A stretch of DNA of 40,314 nt from an uncultured Bacilli bacterium (GCA_947624845.1 CANQMB010000002.1:1-40314), one strand, 5' to 3'. Numbered from the stretch's first letter, positions 5,183 to 40,314 are shown. The notes: generated from the letters alone by a model not told the origin. Numbers and translations are program-made.

Positions 5183-6107
5183 AAACTTCTTTGCTCCTTT
5201 TTACTAATATATTTTGAACAATGGTAAATACATTGCTTGTAACCCAGTAAATTCCTAAAGCAGAAGGCATAAATAAAGACATTACAATAATCATAACACT
5301 CATCATGATTGGCATCGTCTGCATATTGACGTTGCCACTGGTACCAGCCATATTCATTTTGAAAGAATAAAAAGTAGTAAATGCAATCAAAAGAACTAAA
5401 ATTATATATATATACCATGCACTTGAAGTAAATCCAATCATTGGAGTGGTTCCTAATTGCAATTTAAGAAAATAATCTTCAAAAATTGCTGGCGTTCTTT
5501 GTACTGCTTCAAAAAAAGCTAGTAATAAAGGAAGTTGTAACATTGAAAATAAACATCCAGATAGGGGACTTATATTATATTTTTTGTAAACAGCCATTAA
5601 TTCTTGGTTTTGTCGAATCATCGATTCTTGATCTTGTTTTCCCTCATATTTTTTCTGAATTCGATTAATTTCTGGTTGAGCTTTTTTGATGATTTCAGAT
5701 TGAATTGCCGTTTTTTTCGTTACTGGATAGGCAATAAAACGAATAATTAAACTGATGATAATAATAGATAATGCATAATTTTTCAAAAGTTTTCCAAGAA
5801 TTAAGATTAAGAAGGCAAGTGGTTTTACGAAAATACTCGTCCACAATCCTTCGTATTCTCCAGAAGTTACTTTAAATTCATCACAATTTGGTAATTTTTC
5901 AATATTTACTTTTGTTTTTTCATAAGCTTTAATGGTAGATTTATCTGTTGGTTTACATAATATATTTTCAGTTAAATTCTGACCTGTACTTTCATTTTTT
6001 ACAGGATTATTCTTTTTATCCACTAATGTTTTGGTACAACCAGTAGTAAGCATCAATACCAAAAGGAAAATAACTATAATTTTATTACGATATTTTGATT
6101 TTTTCAT
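5169..6107 (-). CDS. yidC: membrane protein insertase YidC/OxaA (lipoprotein type)
   Basis: Lipobox LMLTTGC near the N-terminus and multiple TM helices. Conserved C-terminal block ALGIYWVTSNVFTIVQ. Canonical rnpA-yidC-jag order. Confidence 0.9.
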   Translation of the reverse strand: MKKSKYRNKIIVIFLLVLMLTTGCTKTLVDKKNNPVKNESTGQNLTENILCKPTDKSTIKAYEKTKVNIEKLPNCDEFKVTSGEYEGLWTSIFVKPLAFLILILGKLLKNYALSIIIISLIIRFIAYPVTKKTAIQSEIIKKAQPEINRIQKKYEGKQDQESMIRQNQELMAVYKKYNISPLSGCLFSMLQLPLLLAFFEAVQRTPAIFEDYFLKLQLGTTPMIGFTSSAWYIYIILVLLIAFTTFYSFKMNMAGTSGNVNMQTMPIMMSVMIIVMSLFMPSALGIYWVTSNVFTIVQNILVKRSKEVYGKA

Positions 6108-6611: not shown

Positions 6612-6714
6612 TGTTCCACCTCCAGACATAAATCTACATTATTATAATAGGAAAAACCTTTTTTTGTCAATGAGAAAAAGAAATTAAATTACTTTTTCAC
6701 AGTTTCAACAAATT

Positions 6715-6833
6715 TGTGGATAAAAATTTGCACGATGTGAAGAAAAATTTGTGGAAAATGTGGATAATTCATTTTATTTTATATTTTTCAATTCTTTTTT
6801 ATGTGGAAAAACTTGTGGATTCCTTGTGAATAA
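6715..6833. promoter_or_regulatory. oriC part 1: DnaA-box cluster upstream of dnaA (also the dnaA and rpmH promoter region)
   Basis: Six boxes in one orientation. TGTGGATAA at 6715-6723 and 6759-6767 is the exact complement of TTATCCACA. TGTGGAAAA occurs at 6750-6758 and 6802-6810. TGTGGATTC is at 6814-6822 and TGTGAATAA at 6825-6833. AT-rich tracts lie between them. Confidence 0.85.
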
Positions 6834-6920: not shown

Positions 6921-8297
6921 ATGAATGTAGATTCTTTATGGTCTAAATTTTTATCGACAATCAAAGAAGAACTATCCTCCCTTTCTTATAATATTTGGTT
7001 TGCAGACACAGAACTTTATAAATTAGAACAAGACCGAGCCATCATTATTGTTCCAATGCCAATTCACAAAAAACATTTACCTGAAAATTATAAAGAAATT
7101 ATAGAAAGTACTTTAAATTCAATTACAGGTTCCAATTTAGAATTAGAATTTTTATTAAAAGAAGAAATTCCAAATGAAGAAGAGGAAGAAATCAAAGAAA
7201 TTATTACGATTGAAAAAGAAACTTCAACTCCATTGAATCATTCACCAGTTCAAACGAATTTAAAAAAACAATATACTTTTGAAAACTTTATTGTTGGAAA
7301 TAGTAATAAATTTGCCCATGCAGCCGCTCTTTCTGTTGCAGAAAATCCTGGAAAAATGTATAATCCTCTCTTTATTTATGGAAATAGTGGGTTAGGGAAA
7401 ACTCATTTAATGCATGCAATTGGAAATTTTATCGTAGAAAATAGTAATAAAAAAGTCTTATATGTAACAAGTGATCAATTTATTGAAGATTTTATTGGAA
7501 TTAATAAAAAAAACAATCGAGAAAATAATTTTGATTGTGTAGACTTCTTTAAAAATAAATATCGAAATATTGATGTTTTAATTATTGACGATATTCAGTT
7601 TTTAGGACCGGCCACACAATCTCAACAAGAATTTTTCCACACTTTTAATTCCCTATATAATGATTCAAAACAAATTATTATTTCTTCAGATCGATCTCCT
7701 GATGATTTAAAACTTTTAGAAGATCGTCTGAGAACTCGATTTTGTTGGGGTCTTACCGTTAATATTTTTCCTCCAGATTTCAATCTTCGAGTAGAAATAT
7801 TGAAGAAAAAAATTATCGCTGGAAATTTTGAAAAAGAAATTCCGAATGATGTCATTGAATATATTGCTTCTAATATTGGAAATGATGTCCGACAATTAGA
7901 AGGATCTATTACTCGATTAATTGCATATTCCACAATTATGGGAGGTGCTGAAATTAATTTAGATTTAGCCATTGAAGCTTTAAAAGACTTTATTAGCAAA
8001 GGAATGTGTGAAAAAAATGATATTCATCGAATTCAGCGGATTGTATCCGAATATTTTCAAATCTCAGTAGAAGATATTCGAAGCAAAAAAAGAAGTGCCA
8101 ATATTGCTTTTCCAAGACAAATTGCTATGTATCTATGTAGAAAAACAACATCTGAATCTTTTCCTAAAATAGGAACAGAATTTGGGGGAAAAGATCATTC
8201 TACTGTAATGCATTCCGTTGAAAAAATAGAACAAGAAATTAAAATAAATAAAGATTTGGCTAATATTATAGAAAAATTAAAAAAAGATATAGAATAG
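6921..8297 (+). CDS. dnaA: chromosomal replication initiator protein DnaA
   Basis: AAA+ Walker A GNSGLGKTHL and Walker B LIIDDIQF. C-terminal DNA-binding block FGGKDHSTVMHS. Confidence 0.97.
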   Translation: MNVDSLWSKFLSTIKEELSSLSYNIWFADTELYKLEQDRAIIIVPMPIHKKHLPENYKEIIESTLNSITGSNLELEFLLKEEIPNEEEEEIKEIITIEKETSTPLNHSPVQTNLKKQYTFENFIVGNSNKFAHAAALSVAENPGKMYNPLFIYGNSGLGKTHLMHAIGNFIVENSNKKVLYVTSDQFIEDFIGINKKNNRENNFDCVDFFKNKYRNIDVLIIDDIQFLGPATQSQQEFFHTFNSLYNDSKQIIISSDRSPDDLKLLEDRLRTRFCWGLTVNIFPPDFNLRVEILKKKIIAGNFEKEIPNDVIEYIASNIGNDVRQLEGSITRLIAYSTIMGGAEINLDLAIEALKDFISKGMCEKNDIHRIQRIVSEYFQISVEDIRSKKRSANIAFPRQIAMYLCRKTTSESFPKIGTEFGGKDHSTVMHSVEKIEQEIKINKDLANIIEKLKKDIE

Positions 8298-15783: not shown

Positions 15784-15831
15784 ATGTTTCACGTGAAACA
15801 TTGCCAAATTATTTCCCGGGAAATAATTTTA
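15784..15831. repeat. composite palindromic repeat, left copy (PalA + PalB)
   Basis: ATGTTTCACGTGAAACAT (18-bp palindrome), then TGCC, then AAATTATTTCCCGGGAAATAATTT (24-bp palindrome). The 48 bp are the exact reverse complement of 16434-16481. Confidence 0.95.
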
Positions 15832-15980: not shown

Positions 15981-16427
15981 ATGTATAATCAAAAATTTAT
16001 GAAACTTGCTATTGAAGAAGCAAAAACAGCCTTAAATGAAGAAGAAGTACCTATTGGTGCTGTTATTGTAAAGAATAATCAAGTAATATCTACAGGATAT
16101 AATCAAAAAAATGGTTCTAATTTTGTTACAAAACATGCTGAAATTATAGCAATTGAAAAAGCAAATCAAATTTTAAATAATTGGCGCTTGATCGATTGTG
16201 ATATTTATATAACTTTAGAACCTTGTCCAATGTGTATGAGTGCAATTCAACAAGCAAGAATAAAAAATGTTTTTTATGGAATTTCTAATCGGGATTTAAA
16301 CAATGAAAAAATTATTAAAGAAATTGCTAAAAAAAATCAAACAAATCCAGAAGTTTTATTACATCACGGATATATGATTTCAGAAATTGAAAATCTTATG
16401 AATAAATTTTTTTTAAAACATCGCTAA
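15981..16427 (+). CDS. tadA: tRNA-specific adenosine-34 deaminase TadA
   Basis: CDA zinc motifs HAEIIAI and PCPMCMSAI. 148 aa. GGAG lies 9 nt upstream. Confidence 0.93.
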   Translation: MYNQKFMKLAIEEAKTALNEEEVPIGAVIVKNNQVISTGYNQKNGSNFVTKHAEIIAIEKANQILNNWRLIDCDIYITLEPCPMCMSAIQQARIKNVFYGISNRDLNNEKIIKEIAKKNQTNPEVLLHHGYMISEIENLMNKFFLKHR

Positions 16428-16433
16428 AAAACA

Positions 16434-16481
16434 TAAAATTATTTCCCGGGAAATAATTTGGCAATGTTTCACGTGAAACAT
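16434..16481. repeat. composite palindromic repeat, right copy (PalB + PalA)
   Basis: Exact 48/48 reverse complement of 15784-15831. It starts 7 nt after the tadA stop codon. Confidence 0.95.
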
Positions 16482-31315: not shown

Positions 31316-31342
31316 CTGATTCGTTGAAAGGAGGTATTGTAT

Positions 31343-32020
31343 ATGGAAGAACAACAGAAAAAAGCGAGAGAATTTGTTTTTTCTTTATTGTCGATTGCTT
31401 TTCTTATCGTCGTTGTTCTCGGTGCTACTTATGCTGCTTTTTCTTATACAGGAGTGGGTTCTGCTGATAATACCATTTCTACTAGCAAACTTACTTTTGA
31501 ATATATAGAAGATCGAAATGGAATTAATTTGGTCAATGCTTATCCAATTTCAGATGAAGTAGGGAAAAATTTAATTCAAACCAATGAAGACGATGGTATT
31601 TTAAGTGGTTATTTTGATTTTACAATTTCTAGTAATATAGAATATGCTTTTACGAATGAAGACGAAGAGGTTCCTGTACAAGATCCTGTTCATTATGAAA
31701 TTTATGCAAAAGATATAACCGATGAAGTCATAGCGAGTGAATCAGAGCAATCATTAGAAAAATTGGATGGACAATATGTAAAAGTATATTTGACTTCTGG
31801 GGATTCTGAAGAGTCTCTTATGGGAGATGAGGATACGGTTCCTACGTGGAGCAGTTTGGAAGATTCTACGGAAGAAAACTCTAAAACAATATATAAAGGT
31901 TCTTTTGAAGAAAATGGAAGTCAAAATTTCCGTTTGAGAATGTGGGTTGCTCAAAATTATACAGATGGAAGTGCTCATCGGACATTCGCAGTAAAAGTTG
32001 GTGTCAAAACAATTAAATAA
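31343..32020 (+). CDS. TasA/camelysin-like secreted protein, paralog 1 (225 aa), SipW-type signal peptide
   Basis: TM helix ending GATYAAFSYTG, then NTISTSKLTFEY. Shares blocks with 32085-32732 and 33685-34314 (FDFTIS, YEIYA, VKVYL, YKGSF, FRLRMWV, FAVKVGV). GGAGG lies 8 nt before ATG 31343. Confidence 0.65.
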   Translation: MEEQQKKAREFVFSLLSIAFLIVVVLGATYAAFSYTGVGSADNTISTSKLTFEYIEDRNGINLVNAYPISDEVGKNLIQTNEDDGILSGYFDFTISSNIEYAFTNEDEEVPVQDPVHYEIYAKDITDEVIASESEQSLEKLDGQYVKVYLTSGDSEESLMGDEDTVPTWSSLEDSTEENSKTIYKGSFEENGSQNFRLRMWVAQNYTDGSAHRTFAVKVGVKTIK

Positions 32021-32033
32021 TTAAAAAAAATGT

Positions 32034-32061
32034 TTGCAAAAATTAATTATTATGGTATAGT
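32034..32061 (+). promoter_or_regulatory. strong sigma-A promoter of paralog 2
   Basis: -35 TTGCAA (32034-32039), 16-nt spacer, extended -10 TGgTATAGT (32053-32061). Followed by SD AAGGAGG. Confidence 0.6.
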
Positions 32062-32084
32062 TAGAGTAAGGAGGATAAGATAAA

Positions 32085-32732
32085 ATGGAAAACCAAAATA
32101 ATAATCAGATGAAAGACAATTCATCAAAACAAATATTATTGTCTGTTTTGGGAGTAGCAATCCTAGTTGTAGCTGTTGTCGGTGTTTCGTTTGCAGCATT
32201 TACTTATACTGGAGAAGGTACTGAAGAAAATACAATTAGTACAGGTACTCTTAGTATGACTTATACTGAAACGACAAACGGAATTTCTATTTCAAATGCT
32301 CAACCAACAGAAGATGAAGCTGGAAAGAAATTAAGTTCAGATAATGAAAAATTTGATTTTACAGTTTCTGCTGAAATCAATGGTGAAGCTGAGATTCCTT
32401 ATGAAATAGCAGCGATTAAACAAGTAATTCCTGAACCAATGGTTGCACTTCAAAATAAAGATGTTAAATTATATTTGGAAAAATCTGAAGATGGTATAGA
32501 TTATACCTCAGCAAAAGAACCAACAGCATTTACTCCATCTGGATCTACTACTGAAGCTGGTACTCCAGTTGGTGCCATGGTTTTATATAAAGGTACATTC
32601 CAACAATCAGATGAAGAATATTTCCGTTTAAGAATGTGGGTTGACCACGAAGCTACTTTAGATCCAACCAATTTACAAGCATTTACAGTTAAAGTAAATG
32701 TCTATGGTAAAGCACAAGCTAAAGCAGGTTAA
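32085..32732 (+). CDS. TasA/camelysin-like secreted protein, paralog 2 (215 aa), probable major subunit
   Basis: Helix ending GVSFAAFTYTGEGTEENTISTGTLSMTY, which parallels TasA GGGTWAAFND and CalY TFAFFSD..NTFAAGTLDL. C-terminal YFRLRMWV...FTVKVNVYG. Its codon choice looks biased toward GGT/ACT/GCT/GAA codons; I did not quantify this. Confidence 0.7.
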   Translation: MENQNNNQMKDNSSKQILLSVLGVAILVVAVVGVSFAAFTYTGEGTEENTISTGTLSMTYTETTNGISISNAQPTEDEAGKKLSSDNEKFDFTVSAEINGEAEIPYEIAAIKQVIPEPMVALQNKDVKLYLEKSEDGIDYTSAKEPTAFTPSGSTTEAGTPVGAMVLYKGTFQQSDEEYFRLRMWVDHEATLDPTNLQAFTVKVNVYGKAQAKAG

Positions 32733-32761
32733 AAAAAGGTATCAATGGATACTTTTTTTTT
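32731..32761 (+). terminator. strong (bidirectional-looking) intrinsic terminator
   Basis: An A-run, then stem GTATC (32739-32743), loop AATG, stem GATAC (32748-32752), then 9 T. Confidence 0.8.
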
Positions 32762-32790
32762 GTCTATTTTTTGTCATCCGTGTTTTTTTC

Positions 32791-32819
32791 TTTCCATTTC
32801 GTCTGTTTTATGGTATGAT
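32791..32819 (+). promoter_or_regulatory. promoter of the sipW operon
   Basis: -35 TTTCCA (32791-32796), 17-nt spacer, extended -10 TGgTATGAT (32811-32819). Confidence 0.5.
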
Positions 32820-32875
32820 AAAATCAGAATATAAGATAGAATTTTGGGGAAGGCAAGAGGGAAGCTGGTGAAAAA

Positions 32876-33670
32876 ATGAGTGAGCATACGGTAAAGACAG
32901 ATCTAGATGAAAAAGATCTGCATCCATCAATTTTTACTATCATTAAAAAGATCTATAATTTTGTTGCCAAAGTAATTTTATATTCTATTATTATGGCGAT
33001 GCTCTTCATGGGTGTTTTATTTGTTACTTATTCGATTGATTATATGCAAAATATTTCCAAGGGAAATTACAAACCGTTATATGGTGCCTATATTATTGTC
33101 AGTCCCAGTATGGTCCCTGCCATTCATGTTCAAGATGCAGTCATTGTTAAAAATGTTGCTATGAATCGTCTTCGTAAAGGCGATATTATCACTTTTACTT
33201 CTACGGATTCTAGATACTCAGGATTAATTGTTACACACCGAATTATTGATATTGAAAAAAATGAAGATGGAAAATATTTATTTCGGACAAAAGGGGATAG
33301 TAATAATAGTCCCGATGATGCCCTAGTAACGGAAGATAATATTCATGGAAGGGTGTTTGTAAAAATTCCCAAAATAGGTTATTTACAAAGCTTTTTATCT
33401 CATTCTTATGGTTGGATTATTTGTGTCGTTATTCCATGTCTTGCTTTAATTGCCTATGAAATTTTAAGAATTATTCAAGCGACAAGAGATACCGTCGTAA
33501 AAAAAGTGAGTAAAAAAAATAATCAACAATATAAGACTAAGAAACAAAGAAAAAAACATCAAGTAGAAGTGATTGCCAATGCCAAAGATAAAAAAACAAC
33601 AAAAGAAAAAGAAGAAATTGAAATTATATCTTTAGAAGATGAAAATAATAAATCAAAACATAAAAATTAG
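32876..33670 (+). CDS. sipW: SipW-type (ER/archaeal-type, Ser-His) signal peptidase I with extended termini (264 aa)
   Basis: Catalytic boxes IVSPSMVPAI (Ser), GLIVTHRII (His) and KGDSNNSPDD. TM helices at the N- and C-terminal sides of the catalytic domain. A roughly 70-aa Lys-rich C-terminal tail. Confidence 0.85.
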   Translation: MSEHTVKTDLDEKDLHPSIFTIIKKIYNFVAKVILYSIIMAMLFMGVLFVTYSIDYMQNISKGNYKPLYGAYIIVSPSMVPAIHVQDAVIVKNVAMNRLRKGDIITFTSTDSRYSGLIVTHRIIDIEKNEDGKYLFRTKGDSNNSPDDALVTEDNIHGRVFVKIPKIGYLQSFLSHSYGWIICVVIPCLALIAYEILRIIQATRDTVVKKVSKKNNQQYKTKKQRKKHQVEVIANAKDKKTTKEKEEIEIISLEDENNKSKHKN

Positions 33671-33684
33671 AAAGGAGTATTGAT

Positions 33685-34314
33685 ATGGAAAATAAAGTAG
33701 ATACAGAAAATAAAATTGAGGCAGAAAATACAGTTGATACGGAAAATACAGATAATACAGAAAATAAAGAGAAAAGCCGAAGTAAAGTATTTTTAGAAAT
33801 TTTTATTTGTGGAATCATCCTTTTTCTTTTTTCTCTCGGTACTTCCTTTTTTTGGTATAAGCTTTTTCAAAAAGATAAGGTAGCATTTACAAACTTTGTT
33901 ATTGCTTTAAAAGATGGTGGAAAGGGTGTGGATGTTACTTCTGCAGTTCCTCAAGAGGATAAAATAGGACAAACGACTCCTGGGTACTCATTTGAAATTA
34001 GTAACAATGGAGAAATTCCAGGAAATTATGAAGTGATATTAGAAGATAGTATTGAAAAAGATGAAGATGGATCATCCTTAGAAAATTTATTAACGAGAGA
34101 GCAATTAAGATATCAATTAAGTTTAAATGATCAAGTTATTAATAAAGGATATTTATCTGAATTAGAAGATAGTATTTTAGATATTCGTTCTATCAATAAA
34201 AAGAAAACGAATGTGTATAATTTAAAAATTTGGGTAGCAAAGAATGCCGTCGATTGGGAAAACAAAATCTATCATTATAGAGTCGTTGTAAAACCAATGG
34301 AAAGGGGTAAATAA
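33685..34314 (+). CDS. divergent TasA-like paralog 3 (209 aa), probably membrane-anchored
   Basis: Acidic (T/D)EN-repeat N-tail and a TM helix. GTSFFWY replaces the G.S[FY]AAF cleavage box. The C-terminal domain keeps the family blocks (YSFEISN, YEVIL, YNLKIWVAKN, YRVVVKP). SD AAAGGAG. Confidence 0.6.
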   Translation: MENKVDTENKIEAENTVDTENTDNTENKEKSRSKVFLEIFICGIILFLFSLGTSFFWYKLFQKDKVAFTNFVIALKDGGKGVDVTSAVPQEDKIGQTTPGYSFEISNNGEIPGNYEVILEDSIEKDEDGSSLENLLTREQLRYQLSLNDQVINKGYLSELEDSILDIRSINKKKTNVYNLKIWVAKNAVDWENKIYHYRVVVKPMERGK

Positions 34315-34315
34315 G

Positions 34316-35023
34316 ATGAGAAAATTATTTGGTGAATATAGTCAGATTATCGGTTATACTTGTACAGGCTTAGTTTTTGGGCTTTCTTTCTTTCTTCTGT
34401 TTTTGAATTTTTATCATTATAAAGAAGTATCGATTCAAACAGATAAGACAAAATATGTTGATGATACTTATCAAAAAATAATGACAAATAATGAAAAAAT
34501 AAAAAATATTGTTCAAAATTTTGATGTAAATCGATATACAGGAAGTGAAAACGATTATGGTCTGTTATCGATTCAATCTAGATTAGAGATGTGTACTAAA
34601 GATTTTGAAGATCAAAAAATAGCTTCCTATTTCCAAAAAGAAAAATTATCTGTTTCGGATATCTATGATTTTGGATCTTTATATAATTCTAAAATAGTAA
34701 ATAGTTGTATTGTTAAGGAACTATATGATTTCTTTGCGAGTACGCCTACGAATGCTGATTCAAGATTTTCTTCTCCTAAAATATTAAATGTAACACCCAT
34801 TATGAAGTTAGAAGCGGATTCTTTAATTAGACGTATCGATTATGTTTCTTCAAATCTTGAAAATAACAGTAGTTATTACTTTAATAACAAACGAGCTCGT
34901 AATCATGTATTTAATGTTGCTAAAAGTAGTTATTATGCGATTGTGACTTCTTATGGAGATGCTTCTGATTTTCTTTTAGAAATATCTAATTGGTTTGCTC
35001 GTTATATTGGAGGTGCTGCATGA
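34316..35023 (+). CDS. hypothetical single-pass membrane protein (235 aa)
   Basis: N-terminal TM LVFGLSFFLLFLNFY, then a polar domain of about 190 aa. The start is 1 nt after the upstream stop. SD AGGGG. Confidence 0.55.
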   Translation: MRKLFGEYSQIIGYTCTGLVFGLSFFLLFLNFYHYKEVSIQTDKTKYVDDTYQKIMTNNEKIKNIVQNFDVNRYTGSENDYGLLSIQSRLEMCTKDFEDQKIASYFQKEKLSVSDIYDFGSLYNSKIVNSCIVKELYDFFASTPTNADSRFSSPKILNVTPIMKLEADSLIRRIDYVSSNLENNSSYYFNNKRARNHVFNVAKSSYYAIVTSYGDASDFLLEISNWFARYIGGAA

Positions 35024-35493
35024 AAAAAATATTTAATGGTTTATTTTATTTCTTAAAATTTTTATTGTTTGTTGCCTCTTTTTCTCTCACTTTATTAATT
35101 ATTGTTCAGATGTATAATCGATTAGGCAAAGATGTATTTGATTCTATTCCTGTTTTTGTTCCTTATTTATGTCTATTAATTTTATTTATTATTAATATTC
35201 TTTTAAGACAAAAATCAGTAACTAAATGTGTATTCTATAATATTACTTGTTGTCTAGTTTTTGGAACGATTCTTGTCGTAGGACTTCGAGCTATGTTCGA
35301 CAGTAATATGATATTAAGGGCACAATTAGGTAGAAAGATTAATTTCAACTTTTTTGATTACTTTATACCTTTTATGAAAGTAATGCTATATGGTTTATCA
35401 ATTAGTAATTTCTTTTTGATGTTTACTGGAGAGAAAAAAGAAAAAAAACTAGCGAAATTAATAAAAGAAGAGGATATTGAACAAGTAATTTAA
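35020..35493 (+). CDS. hypothetical polytopic membrane protein (157 aa, about 4 TM)
   Basis: ATG 35020 lies 4 nt behind GGAGG and forms an ATGA overlap with the upstream stop. Four hydrophobic segments and a charged C-tail. Confidence 0.55.
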   Translation: MKKIFNGLFYFLKFLLFVASFSLTLLIIVQMYNRLGKDVFDSIPVFVPYLCLLILFIINILLRQKSVTKCVFYNITCCLVFGTILVVGLRAMFDSNMILRAQLGRKINFNFFDYFIPFMKVMLYGLSISNFFLMFTGEKKEKKLAKLIKEEDIEQVI

Positions 35494-36728: not shown

Positions 36729-37007
36729 ATGAAGATTACATCTGTCAATGTACGCAAAATCGAAAAAGAAGGATCACGCATGAAAGGAATTGCTTCTGTC
36801 CTATTAGATGACAGTTTCGCAGTTCATGATATTCGCATTATTGAAGGTGACAATGGCCTATTTATTGCAATGCCTAGTCGTAAAACAGCTACTGGATCTT
36901 ATCGTGATATTGCACATCCGATTAATCCAGAAGTACGTGCTATGTTCGAAGATGCTATTATCGAAGCATATAATAATGCCGATGATGTAGAAGAAGCAAG
37001 TGAATAA
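36729..37007 (+). CDS. spoVG: septation/sporulation protein SpoVG
   Basis: [12 protein letters not shown]...[34 protein letters not shown] is near-invariant SpoVG sequence. Confidence 0.96.
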
Positions 37008-37012
37008 TAAAG

Positions 37013-37036
37013 ATACGGAAATCCGTATTTTTTTTG
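37013..37036 (+). terminator. intrinsic terminator after spoVG
   Basis: ATACGG (37013-37018) pairs with CCGTAT (37023-37028), followed by 8 T. Confidence 0.7.
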
Positions 37037-37102
37037 AGTTAAAAAATTAGAAAAAAGGTATATTTTTCTAATTTTTTCATATATTTTTTTAAGGAGGAAC
37101 CC

Positions 37103-37393
37103 ATGGAAAAAGAAACACATATAAATAATTATAATCATAGCATCAATTTAACAGAGAGAAAAAATTTAATGATTTCTGGAGTAAAAAAAATTGATAATTT
37201 CGATAATGAACAATTTTTAATGGATACGGTAATGGGTTTTTTACTAGTCAAAGGAGAAGGTTTAGAACTCATTAAATTAGATACTTTGCAAGGAAGCGTA
37301 ATTATTAAAGGAATTATTCATAGTATGAATTATTTAGAAGAAAAGACAGGAAAAAATAAAGAAAATACTATTTTTAATCGCCTATTTAAATAA
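37103..37393 (+). CDS. yabP: sporulation protein YabP
   Basis: LMISGVKKIDNFDNEQFLMDTVMGFLLVKGEGLEL parallels B. subtilis YabP (ISGVKEVESFDNEEFLLETVMG). SD AAGGAGGA. Confidence 0.85.
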   Translation: MEKETHINNYNHSINLTERKNLMISGVKKIDNFDNEQFLMDTVMGFLLVKGEGLELIKLDTLQGSVIIKGIIHSMNYLEEKTGKNKENTIFNRLFK

Positions 37394-37701
37394 TGAATTT
37401 ACAAATACAAATTTTTTGTTTTATTTTTTCTTTCCTCTTTGGCGTTCTTTTTGCTATTTTAGTAAATTTTCATTACCCTTTATTGTTTTCTAAAAAGAAA
37501 TGGTTTCGAATTATCATGAACTTTATTTTTGTGATTGATATGGCCTTATTTTATTTTTTAGTTTTAAAAATGATAAATGGTGGAATTGTTCATTTTTATT
37601 TCTATCTTCTGATTTTACTGGGCTTTTTCTGCAGTTATTCGAAGACGAAGAAGATGAGAGATATTCTTAGAAATTTGACAAAAAAGAAAAAAGTGTTATA
37701 A
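37393..37701 (+). CDS. yabQ: spore cortex biosynthesis protein YabQ-like membrane protein
   Basis: Three hydrophobic helices and a TAATG overlap with yabP. The call rests on the conserved yabP-yabQ pairing. Confidence 0.65.
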   Translation: MNLQIQIFCFIFSFLFGVLFAILVNFHYPLLFSKKKWFRIIMNFIFVIDMALFYFLVLKMINGGIVHFYFYLLILLGFFCSYSKTKKMRDILRNLTKKKKVL

Positions 37702-37997: not shown

Positions 37998-39581
37998 ATG
38001 TGTGGCTTTATGGTCATGACAAAAAAAGAAATTAGCAAAGAAGAGTTTGCAAAGCATTTTGCAAAAATGAAATACCGTGGTCCAGACGAGACGAGAATTC
38101 TTGAAGGAGATTATTTTTTTGGATTTCATCGACTTGCCATTATGGGACTTACTGAGGAAGGGATGCAACCATTTGAGAGAGATCAAAATATTTTAGTATG
38201 TAATGGTGAAATTTATGGATTCCGTAAAGAAAAAGCGAAATTAGAAAAAGAGGGTTATCAATTTAAAAGTGATAGTGATTGTGAAATTTTACTTCCTATG
38301 TATGAAAAATATAAGGAAAAGATGTTTCAAAAGTTAGATAGTGAATTTGCCCTCGTTTTATATGATGCCAAAAAAAAGAGTTTTATTGCTGCAAGAGATC
38401 CTATTGGGATTCGTCCGATGTTTTATGGATATTCTAAAAAGAGTGGTTCTATTCTTTTTGCTAGTGAAGCAAAAGTATTGATTGATCTATGTTCCTCTGT
38501 TTATCCATTTCCACCTGGGCATTATTATCAAGACGGAAAGTTTATTTGTTATCATGATGCTAGAAAATCTAAATCAAAGAGAGACGATTCTCTAGATATT
38601 ATTTGTGATAAAATTAACGAAAAGTTAACGAATGCGGTTATTAAGAGGTTAGATTCTGATGCCCCTGTAGGATTTTTACTTTCTGGTGGACTAGATTCTT
38701 CCTTAGTATGCAGTATTGCAGCTTCTTATTTAGAAAAACCAATTCAAACTTTTGCGATTGGGATGGATAAAGATGCAATTGATTTAAAATATGCTCGAAT
38801 GGTAGCGGATCATATTCATAGCAATCATACTGAAGTGATTATGGCGAGCAAGGAAGTCATCGAGGCATTGAAAGAAGTTATATATCATTTGGAAACTTGG
38901 GATATTACGACCATTCGTGCTTCTATTGGTATGTATCTACTTTGCAAATGGATTTCTAAAAATACGGATATTCGAGTTTTATTGACTGGAGAAGTAAGTG
39001 ATGAATTATTTGGATATAAATATACGGATTTCGCTCCTAATGCTCTCTCTTTTCAAAAAGAGAGTGAAAAAAGAATTCATGAACTCTACATGTATGATGT
39101 TCTAAGAGCAGATCGTTGTATTTCTGGATGTTCTATTGAAGCTCGTGTTCCTTTTGCAGATTTAGAGTTTGTTGATTATGTTATGGGAATTGATCCTGCC
39201 AAAAAAATGAATACTTATGGGCAAGGAAAATATTTATTACGAAGAGCTTTCAGTAAAAAAGATTATTTACCAAAGACAATTTTATATCGTGAAAAAGCTG
39301 CTTTTTCAGATGCCGTAGGACATTCTATGGTCGATTATTTGAAAGAGTATGCCGAGAAAAAATATAGTGACGAGCAATTTCAAGAGAAATGTAAAAAATA
39401 TTCAAAACATACACCATTTACGAAAGAATCTTTATTGTATCGTGAAATTTTTGAGGAGTTTTTTCCTGGGCAGAGTGAATTGATTGCAGATTTTTGGATG
39501 CCAAATAAAAATTGGAAAGGATGCCAGGTAGATGATCCAAGCGCAAGAGTCTTATCAAACTATGGTGACAGTGGAAAATAA
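37998..39581 (+). CDS. asnB: asparagine synthetase (glutamine-hydrolysing)
   Basis: Ntn nucleophile MCG at ATG 37998 (SD GAAGGGAGAG) and PP-loop LSGGLDSS. 527 aa. The track start TTG 37980 would bury the catalytic Cys. Confidence 0.93.
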   Translation: MCGFMVMTKKEISKEEFAKHFAKMKYRGPDETRILEGDYFFGFHRLAIMGLTEEGMQPFERDQNILVCNGEIYGFRKEKAKLEKEGYQFKSDSDCEILLPMYEKYKEKMFQKLDSEFALVLYDAKKKSFIAARDPIGIRPMFYGYSKKSGSILFASEAKVLIDLCSSVYPFPPGHYYQDGKFICYHDARKSKSKRDDSLDIICDKINEKLTNAVIKRLDSDAPVGFLLSGGLDSSLVCSIAASYLEKPIQTFAIGMDKDAIDLKYARMVADHIHSNHTEVIMASKEVIEALKEVIYHLETWDITTIRASIGMYLLCKWISKNTDIRVLLTGEVSDELFGYKYTDFAPNALSFQKESEKRIHELYMYDVLRADRCISGCSIEARVPFADLEFVDYVMGIDPAKKMNTYGQGKYLLRRAFSKKDYLPKTILYREKAAFSDAVGHSMVDYLKEYAEKKYSDEQFQEKCKKYSKHTPFTKESLLYREIFEEFFPGQSELIADFWMPNKNWKGCQVDDPSARVLSNYGDSGK

Positions 39582-39616
39582 GTTGTAAAATGTTTGTCAA
39601 TGTCTAGTTATTTTTC

Positions 39617-39645
39617 TTGCACTTCTTATTGACATATTCTATAAT
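39617..39645 (+). promoter_or_regulatory. sigma-A promoter upstream of divIC
   Basis: -35 TTGCAC (39617-39622), 17-nt spacer, consensus -10 TATAAT (39640-39645). Confidence 0.55.
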
Positions 39646-39670
39646 TTATAGTAGATAGGAAGGTGGTAAA

Positions 39671-39964
39671 GTGGCTAGAAGAAAAAAAAGCAAAAAAACA
39701 AAACGTCGTCTTTTGTTTTTAGGCTTTACATCTGTTTTAATTATTATGATTACCACAATTTCTATTGGACATTATTGGGTTGAAATATTTGCTAAGTATC
39801 AAGAAAAAAAACAATTAGAAAAAAAATTAGTAAAAATGAAAGAAAAAGAAGAAGCATTGAAAGTGGATGCAGATAAATTACAAGATCCAGATTATATTGC
39901 TCGTTATGCAAGAGAAAAATATTTGTATTCAAAAGATGGAGAATTTATATTAAAAATTCCATAA
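39671..39964 (+). CDS. divIC: septum formation initiator DivIC/FtsB family
   Basis: Basic N-tail, one TM helix, a coiled coil, and DPDYIARYAREKYLYSKDGEFI. GTG start behind AGGAAGGTGG. Confidence 0.78.
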   Translation: MARRKKSKKTKRRLLFLGFTSVLIIMITTISIGHYWVEIFAKYQEKKQLEKKLVKMKEKEEALKVDADKLQDPDYIARYAREKYLYSKDGEFILKIP

Positions 39965-39965
39965 A

Positions 39966-39989
39966 ATGATCGAAAAGATCATTTTTTTG
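39966..39989 (+). terminator. intrinsic terminator after divIC
   Basis: ATGATC (39966-39971) pairs with GATCAT (39977-39982), followed by 7 T. Confidence 0.7.
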
Positions 39990-40006
39990 TTTCAAAAAAA
40001 GGAGGT

Positions 40007-40028
40007 CATAAAGGTAGATACTTTATGG
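40007..40028. repeat. left 22-bp inverted repeat of a candidate invertible element
   Basis: CATAAAGGTAGATACTTTATGG is the exact reverse complement of 40255-40276. Confidence 0.9.
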
Positions 40029-40184
40029 TTTTTTTTAGTGATACGAAGATATAGTAAGGATTTTTAATTTTTTGACTAGAAATTTGACTAATTTTTTTGA
40101 TTGTCGAATTTTATTAGACGAATTATTTTTGAATAAAATTAGACTAGTTTTTGACTGATAATAGCAAAGAATTTGGAAGATTTA

Positions 40185-40213
40185 TTGATAAAAATAGGGA
40201 ATTATTGTATATT
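40185..40213 (+). promoter_or_regulatory. sigma-A-like promoter inside the IR-bounded segment, pointing right
   Basis: -35 TTGATA (40185-40190), 17-nt spacer, -10 TATATT (40208-40213) preceded by TG. Confidence 0.45.
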
Positions 40214-40254
40214 AATAAATAGAAAAGATAAAAATAACACTTATAAATTCGAGG

Positions 40255-40276
40255 CCATAAAGTATCTACCTTTATG
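40255..40276. repeat. right 22-bp inverted repeat of a candidate invertible element
   Basis: CCATAAAGTATCTACCTTTATG is the exact reverse complement of 40007-40028. Confidence 0.9.
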
Positions 40277-40295
40277 GCAAGAGGAAAAAAGGAAA

Positions 40296-40314
40296 ATGAA
40301 GAAGATATGGTATG
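40296..40314 (+). CDS. 5' end of an unidentified ORF truncated by the window edge (MKKIWY...)
   Basis: ATG 40296 follows a purine-rich GAGGAAAAAAGGAAA. An alternative start, ATG 40274 inside the right IR (MARGKKENEEDMV...), is open in another frame. I cannot decide between them from 19-41 nt. Confidence 0.3.

Follow-up and report, generated by a model that had tools for sequence, protein, structure and literature searches.

The window (the whole stretch of DNA analysed, 40,314 nt from an uncultured Bacilli bacterium) was an entire contig that stopped 38 bp past the right arm of a pair of 22-bp inverted repeats located downstream of divIC, and this locus raised the question of whether the repeats bounded a promoter segment that is flipped as DNA, as the first-pass annotation had proposed, or simply formed two RNA hairpins. 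The sequence comparison made it very likely that the 270-bp element was a flip-flop promoter in the ON position for a surface-protein gene, and a probability of about 0.85 was given to the reading that 40006-40277 was a site-specific invertible promoter (inverton) of a TasA/camelysin-like membrane-anchored surface protein gene, captured ON.

Genomic context and anatomy of the element

The window represented the replication-origin region of a low-G+C Firmicute, with dnaX, recR, mfd, metG, ksgA, spoVG, yabP, yabQ, asnB, and divIC downstream of the origin. Three other features of the window were recorded: (i) inverted repeats with TTATCCAC / GTGGATAA (6013-6033, 6706-6736, and 6938-6960) flanking the dnaA start, which we take to be DnaA-box-like words consistent with oriC; (ii) a perfect 48-nt inverted repeat (15784-15831 and 16434-16481; each arm made of two palindromes, ATGTTTCACGTGAAACAT and AAATTATTTCCCGGGAAATAATTT) around 602 nt with a tadA-like deaminase ORF (15981-16427), which may represent a second invertible segment or a pair of bidirectional terminators; and (iii) six consecutive plus-strand ORFs of 167-264 aa (31337-35493) with no significant Pfam family. 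The host lineage was labelled Tenericutes, Mollicutes, or Mycoplasma by several submitters, yet it encoded CotE, SpoVG, YabP, and YabQ (L147 1-306, GCA_949481315.1; window 36729-37701), a gene content that suggests a spore-forming member of the Bacilli and not a true mollicute. Two MAGs carrying the switch family (see below) were labelled Muribaculaceae, probably by mislabelling.

The closest MAG was CAMNSB01, whose AsnB and DivIC were 75% and 81% identical to those of the window; in this closest species (L001), a different gene followed divIC, and no switch or repeat was present there. The 22-mer arm had no match in the genome contig collection, and exact-protein look-ups for DivIC and AsnB gave no match. 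The window's species was represented by one further contig only, L082 (ENA assembly ERZ27249266; 1287 bp, 3.8x coverage), which was reached through a 72-aa alternative DivIC call (P0046). L082 overlapped the window over 959 bp and extended 328 bp beyond it. One switch copy was visible in this species. The two contigs displayed five differences in the 959 shared bases, all of them between 40029 and 40040, on the inner side of the left arm (TTTTTTTTAGTG in the window and CTTTTTCAAATA at 674-685 of L082); they may stem from patchy gene conversion by a paralogous switch, from a terminator tail that varies between strains, or from an assembly artefact at low coverage.

The upstream neighbour on the non-target side was divIC (septum formation initiator; 39671..39964, plus strand; Pfam DivIC, E 1.6e-16). 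The divIC terminator annotated just before the element was recovered as a terminator-like hairpin plus U-run at 39963..39989 on the plus strand (RNA fold −8.4 kcal/mol, z −3.0); a consensus terminator scan missed it because its stem contained too few G-C pairs. A search of 39500-40314 against Rfam gave nothing above noise.

The 22-bp repeats were as originally described: CATAAAGGTAGATACTTTATGG occupied 40007-40028, and its reverse complement was found without mismatch (22/22 nt) at 40255-40276, with 226 nt in between. These were the only two copies of the arm in the 40-kb window with up to three mismatches allowed, and arm matches appeared in 0/100 dinucleotide-preserving shuffles of the window. 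The segment was AT-rich as stated, the G+C content of the region being 23-24% versus 30-36% in neighbouring coding DNA. The earlier annotation overlooked that each arm was itself an internal palindrome with a 7-7-7 layout (CATAAAG-GTAGATA-CTTTATG). Since the rest of the arm was palindromic, its direction (inverted versus direct) was set by the 7-nt centre alone, and the two centres in the window were inverted at 7/7 positions. The resulting core sites were (i) IRL (40006-40028), composed of the TCATAAAG half-site (40006-40013), the centre GTAGATA (40014-40020), and the CTTTATGG half-site (40021-40028), and (ii) IRR (40255-40277), composed of CCATAAAG, the centre TATCTAC (40263-40269), and then CTTTATGG; the half-sites of IRL and IRR recurred in 44 other pairs (see below).

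Between the arms, the element harbored two GACTA box pairs on the plus strand, namely pair 1 at 40072-40090 (TTGACTA at 40072-40078 and again at 40084-40090) and pair 2 at 40139-40157 (TTAGACTA at 40139-40146 and TTGACTG at 40151-40157), together with the single related boxes GTCGA and GACGA (40103-40121). The rightward promoter of the first-pass annotation was found at 40185-40213 on the plus strand (−35 TTGATA at 40185-40190, 17-nt spacer, and −10 TATATT at 40208-40213 preceded by TTG), 42 nt from the right arm and aimed at the target gene. A promoter scan by itself did not exceed chance (2 sites versus 5.2 expected), and the promoter call was credible because homologous promoters were conserved in the related elements. 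Being conserved and aimed at the target gene, this promoter placed the window copy in the ON state; the earlier assignment of that state thus agreed with the common plan of the related elements, in which the promoter faces the target gene.

The downstream ORF was indeed cut by the window edge: a ribosome-binding site GAGGA (40281-40285) and the start of the target gene (40281..40314, plus strand, including both) were present before the contig end, with the ATG at 40296, the product starting MKKIWY..., and the first 19 nt alone in the window. The distance of 19 nt from arm to ATG matched the about 20-23 nt seen in the family. L082 carried the ORF on through 115 codons, giving a protein that began with MKKIWYELKKRF..., continued with a hydrophobic anchor, and then read ...ESRGSLNIVTGNLY...; through this contig and the relatives described next, the gene left unnamed at first was identified as encoding a membrane-anchored TasA/camelysin-like surface protein.

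A first homologue search with the 115-aa N-terminus retrieved P0121 only; no switch was seen within the 88 bases upstream of P0121, and this gene (L083 89-1385) was cut short beside an opposite-strand IS3-family (rve) transposase gene. The protein search yielded relatives at 25 loci in uncultured gut "Bacilli/Tenericutes" MAGs, and the wider target family had 2,048 members at E below 1e-30. Most members had no Pfam match; the N-terminal domain of P0216 passed the threshold of Pfam Peptidase_M73 (camelysin/TasA), and others matched DUF6273 or, weakly, FGE-sulfatase. No name for the family was available in NCBIfam, and none of the target proteins matched a lipoprotein family. The products of the family are exported or surface proteins. 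Most other target relatives had no inverted repeats upstream, and the nearest of these (L084 and L086) displayed a fixed promoter instead.

The switch family and its core sites

A blind inverted-repeat search was applied to the regions upstream of the 25 relatives found by the protein search, and it returned 23-24-nt perfect repeats at three loci of the mouse-gut MAG MGBC137871 (CAJUHO01). These repeats shared the half-sites TCATAAAG...CTTTATGA with the window and had different centres; the loci were tandem arrays repeating about every 2.1-2.2 kb, in which each paralogue of ~600 aa was preceded by a repeat pair. When 185,579 species genomes were then scanned for paired sites (CATAAAG-N7-CTTTATG, 228-258 nt, CATAAAG-N7-CTTTATG), 44 pairs on 38 stretches were recovered. 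They came exclusively from seven related MAGs, of which MGBC137871 contributed 32 pairs, CAJLUG01 four, CAOJZZ01 three, CANTCS01 two, and CAMNSB01, CAJUTW01, and CAZWXX01 one each. With the window included, the switch family comprised at least 45 elements from eight related gut Bacilli genomes. The same scan gave no pairs in viral contigs, and ~1.2 Mb of other fetched loci contained just one unrelated single site (in L062).

The 44 related elements supported the invertible-promoter reading through their shared site type, plan, and position before a gene. The plan common to the elements was arm, two GACTA box pairs, promoter, and arm, followed at the target-family loci by about 20-30 nt to the start codon. 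Read with the promoter pointing right, the consensus of the 32 copies in MGBC137871 ran as arm, short T-run, TTGACTA-N5/6-TGACTA, ~60 nt, TTGACAA-N6-TTGACTA, TTGATT-17-(TTG)TATACT, ~35 nt, arm, ~20 nt, and the start codon. The window and the elements of the other MAGs broadly matched this consensus; in the other MAGs, the promoters had the form TTGxxA-17-TATAyT at 22-42 nt from the proximal arm, and most elements had a GACTA box pair ~35-55 nt from the promoter-distal arm. A target-family gene was present on exactly one side of 29/32 switches in MGBC137871 (the remaining three adjoined other genes), and the other MAGs had the same switch type before different surface genes, such as that for a VWA/tip-pilin-like adhesin (L143).

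All 90 sites conformed to T/C-CATAAAG, N7, CTTTATG-A/G. The invariance of the half-sites in the 44 scanned pairs was partly built in, because the scan demanded CATAAAG/CTTTATG exactly; the eighth position, left free by the scan, was nonetheless T...A in 38/45 pairs. The centres behaved differently from the half-sites: the 45 pairs (window included) contained 26 distinct centres, and those of partner sites were exact reverse complements in 41/45 pairs, with a 6/7 match in three more, whereas non-partner sites agreed at a mean of 4.2/7 positions and perfectly in 4.4% of comparisons. The centre ended in TA on the inner side in 40/45 pairs, extending the half-site to TCATAAAGTA and thereby making the site polar (TCATAAAG-N5-TA-CTTTATGA). 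Co-varying centres are what is expected if strand exchange within the centre needs identity between partners, and they are not expected of hairpins or transposon ends. The centre CAAAATA was common to seven loci in one MAG, and addressing of individual switches by their centres would be partial at best. Neighbouring switches always differed in their centres, but this was not statistically significant (estimated P about 0.3), and selection for such differences was dropped as a claim.

Some sites departed from the family pattern. The two centres of one pair (L142 524-815) differed at several positions, marking a decayed or odd member, and in another (L149 837-857) the left centre TAAAATA was one base off its partner and its orthologue L118. 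Two solo sites (L127 2191-2211 and L120 3129-3149) had no partner within 450 nt, one of them lying before mraZ with its promoter half truncated. A search of metagenome contigs with the 22-mer arm gave one match, centre included (L081 393-414, Ga0209834_10078948; CCATAAAGGTAGATACTTTATGG). The contig in question was an unrelated, phage-like one of 1.4 kb, and the match followed an A-run where a small Cys-rich ORF ended; with a rough chance probability of about 0.1, this match may be coincidental or genuine, for example as an attP-like site. Contig ends of these genomes often fell inside or less than 100 bp from switches, as at the window end (40314), L151 1-197, L114 1-227, L118 3278-3547, L149 2988-3214, and L109 1-26; the window itself stopped 19 nt into a gene whose 5′ end was conserved among paralogues. 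Such breaks fit assembly across mixed orientations or repeated gene starts.

The statement that the window contained no recombinase gene held in a Pfam search of 28 ORFs and in XerD/Hin probe searches of all ORFs of at least 100 aa, and XerD/Hin probes (single sequences) likewise found none in ~220 kb around the related switches. The class of the enzyme was considered from the core site, which consisted of two inverted half-sites around an asymmetric 7-nt centre and hence had the geometry of tyrosine-recombinase core-type sites. Tyrosine strand exchange at lox, FRT, dif, and att cores needs identical centres between partners, and the sites of serine invertases are symmetric about a 2-bp crossover dinucleotide; on geometry, the odd, asymmetric centre of 7 nt did not have the hix/gix-type form. 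The 8-7-8 geometry and the matching-centre rule together favoured the tyrosine type over a serine invertase, and judged from site geometry alone, the recombinase is probably of the tyrosine type and encoded elsewhere. A real switch catalysed instead by a serine invertase (Hin/Gin/Mpi type) or a DEDD recombinase (Piv/IS110-type) is improbable, though it is the strongest of the competing accounts: the searched loci held no enzyme to fix the class, and global serine invertases flipping many promoters are known (e.g., Mpi of Bacteroides fragilis), but by inference from geometry, an odd asymmetric stretch of 7 nt flanked by 8-bp half-sites agrees with tyrosine recombinases, whose overlap measures 6-8 nt, and tyrosine-type strand exchange characteristically demands matching centres.

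Inversion, probable terminator stems, and competing readings

The sequence comparison was also applied to independent assemblies of the same loci. L149 (ERZ13410476) and L118 (MGBC137871 contig 57) represented one such locus, and L150 (ERZ14864033) and L115 (MGBC137871 contig 65) another; in both comparisons, the 200-bp flanks were 100% identical, and the inner segments were 100% identical as reverse complements only. Identical flanks around reversed inner segments indicated that the switch family inverts in place, precisely at the arms. The paralogues L091a and L089d displayed the same relationship at lower identity: their flanks were colinear (72% and 89% identity), and their inner segments matched at 86% when reversed versus 48% forward, with homology reaching both arms. 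A third comparison of assemblies (L150b and L151b) showed one orientation in both, and the contigs with P0139, which came from two MAGs of a single species, did not differ in orientation and were uninformative. Among the 29 switches of MGBC137871 next to target-family genes, three were ON and 26 were OFF.

The invertible promoter originally proposed was thus borne out in both orientations for the family (L149/L118 and L150/L115), while the window copy was ON in both assemblies holding it (window and L082). Because these two assemblies had the same orientation, we infer switching of the window's own copy from its family membership, and on this sequence-based argument, such switching is likely. 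The opposite case, a family member locked ON in this species (for instance, through loss of the recombinase), is given a small chance, slightly below that of a serine or DEDD enzyme: besides the ON orientation of both assemblies, it could draw on the lack of any recombinase found in the window or the fetched loci and on the decayed or solo sites elsewhere in the family, but decay would be expected in the arms first, as in L142, and the window's arms were perfect (22/22, centre included) with promoter and boxes intact, and a minority orientation would escape two consensus assemblies of low coverage.

The arms were also analysed as RNA. A T8 run on the plus strand (40029..40036) lay just inside the left arm and, with the arm hairpin, had a terminator-like form that would act against divIC read-through in the ON state; the fold of 39998-40042 (arm 1 plus U8, plus strand) gave −10.6 kcal/mol (z −3.7). 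The right arm formed a 9-bp hairpin in the 5′ UTR (−11.5 to −12.4 kcal/mol). The outer flank of the left arm (39993..40006, minus strand; ACCUCCUUUUUUUG) was a predicted terminator U-tail for leftward OFF-state transcripts: when the OFF state was modelled by reverse-complementing 40029-40254, the minus-strand RNA contained a 4+7-bp hairpin (−11.8 kcal/mol, z −3.9) followed directly by CU7 and positioned before divIC. In MGBC137871, a T-run was present at the equivalent place in most of the 26 OFF loci, where AATTTTTTATTTT mostly stood immediately outside the arm faced by the promoter, and the three ON loci had the same run on the far side. A consensus terminator scan reported none at the arms because the stems were AT-rich. 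From these folds and models, the arms probably double as terminator stems.

This terminator role retained part of the independent-hairpin alternative raised by the first-pass annotation, namely that the arms probably serve as terminator stems too; hairpins alone failed to explain the co-varying centres and the in-place inversions. The full form of that alternative, in which the arms are independent RNA hairpins only (divIC terminator plus 5′-UTR stem) with no DNA inversion, could account for the folding of both arms (−10.6 and about −12 kcal/mol, the first followed by U8) and for the T-runs common beside arms across the family. It is nevertheless very improbable: loops need not be reverse complements, yet the centres were exactly inverted in 41/45 pairs while differing between loci; the stems kept one sequence rather than co-varying; and the segment was flipped in place at two orthologous loci, which contradicts this alternative for the family. 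No better supported was a MITE with 22-nt terminal inverted repeats and many copies, since the short, AT-rich, non-coding form and the 32 copies in one MAG suit such an element, but there was no target-site duplication (left flank GGAGGT, right flank GCAAGA). In addition, copies at target-family loci kept a distance of ~20-23 nt to the start codons of a single gene family, as though gene and switch had been duplicated together; where copies differed, the changes clustered in the 7-nt centre and had their mirror image in the partner arm; copies flipped with flanks unchanged; and viral contigs contained none.

For the invertible promoter, the following mechanism is proposed. A recombinase encoded elsewhere would bind four half-sites and synapse the two arms, and strand exchange would occur within the 7-nt centre; the need for matching centres in this exchange would make partner centres co-vary while loci differ. 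In the ON state, the promoter would drive the surface-protein gene, and the left arm with its inner U8 would block divIC read-through; in the OFF state, the promoter would be flipped toward divIC, and the left arm with its outer U7 would terminate its transcripts. The GACTA boxes are candidate accessory/arm-type sites or regulator sites. A more elaborate version, offered tentatively and held to be possible rather than favoured, is a genome-wide bank of at least 30 switches in these gut Bacilli with small genomes, served by one recombinase encoded elsewhere, each switch being addressed by its own 7-nt centre; the 23-bp sites would also be orientation-dependent terminator stems insulating neighbours, and a heterobivalent invertase resembling lambda Int would use the paired GACTA boxes as arm-type sites and set directionality or frequency. 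If this were true, partners would recombine and many non-partner combinations could not, so that tandem gene arrays would be protected from deletion.

The results point to large-scale phase variation of an uncharacterised, roughly 2,000-member TasA-like surface-protein family in uncultured gut Bacilli, and such variation is relevant to colonisation and to the evasion of immunity or phages. The defined consensus TCATAAAG-N5-TA-CTTTATGA, with sites about 250 bp apart, allows members of the family to be located in metagenomes without recourse to reads, the co-varying crossover centres are a natural set of heterospecific sites, and the loci caught in both states are ready test material.

Comparison with known systems

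The switch family of uncultured gut Bacilli was apparently undescribed. A full-text search for the half-site words, in a searchable literature that is incomplete, returned nothing relevant, and Tenericutes, Mollicutes, and Bacilli went unmentioned in a survey of gut invertons (PhaseFinder/DeepInverton, PMC11602134). Within that incomplete literature, no published description of the site, the target family, or the host lineage was found, and the elements apparently make up a new family of a known kind.

With respect to the sites, the known tyrosine core sites are loxP (13-8-13), FRT, dif (11-6-11), and the lambda att core (7-7-7), and inverted orientation of such sites leads to inversion. The sites of the present family resembled them in having two inverted half-sites around a 6-8-nt asymmetric overlap that sets direction and matches between partners; they differed in their short half-sites of 7-8 nt, and the likeness is geometric only.

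Two further systems are functional analogues. The Mpi promoters of Bacteroides fragilis are similar in that a single trans enzyme probably inverts many scattered promoter segments, which have a repeat motif in common and precede surface-structure genes of gut bacteria, whereas Mpi is a serine recombinase, and phylum and motif differ. The flgB and cwpV switches of Clostridioides difficile have roughly 21-nt inverted repeats around 150-200 bp and are flipped by RecV, a tyrosine recombinase; fewer than ten are known per genome, and at least part of their action follows the start of transcription (an effect in the leader through a terminator or Rho) instead of depending on a promoter carried by the switch. 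The present family shared with them a Firmicute host, inverted repeats upstream of a surface or motility gene, and a recombinase encoded elsewhere, but it was distinguished by the promoter carried within the element and by more than 30 switches in one genome.

The closest known system is the mpl family (P35) of Mycoplasma penetrans, likened here by description. The two systems differed in (i) targets, which were TasA/camelysin-like proteins with an N-terminal anchor here and are P35 lipoproteins in mpl; (ii) hosts, which here were apparently spore-forming gut Bacilli; and (iii) the longer element found here, Horino et al. reportedly having described in 2003 M. penetrans repeats of 12 bp around about 135 bp. 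According to one account (PMC2268961, citing Horino 2003), most of the 38 mpl lipoprotein genes have their own invertible promoter. By that description, both systems are composed of many paralogous surface-protein genes, often in tandem, each with its own short, independently switched promoter, and in both the recombinase is not part of each unit.
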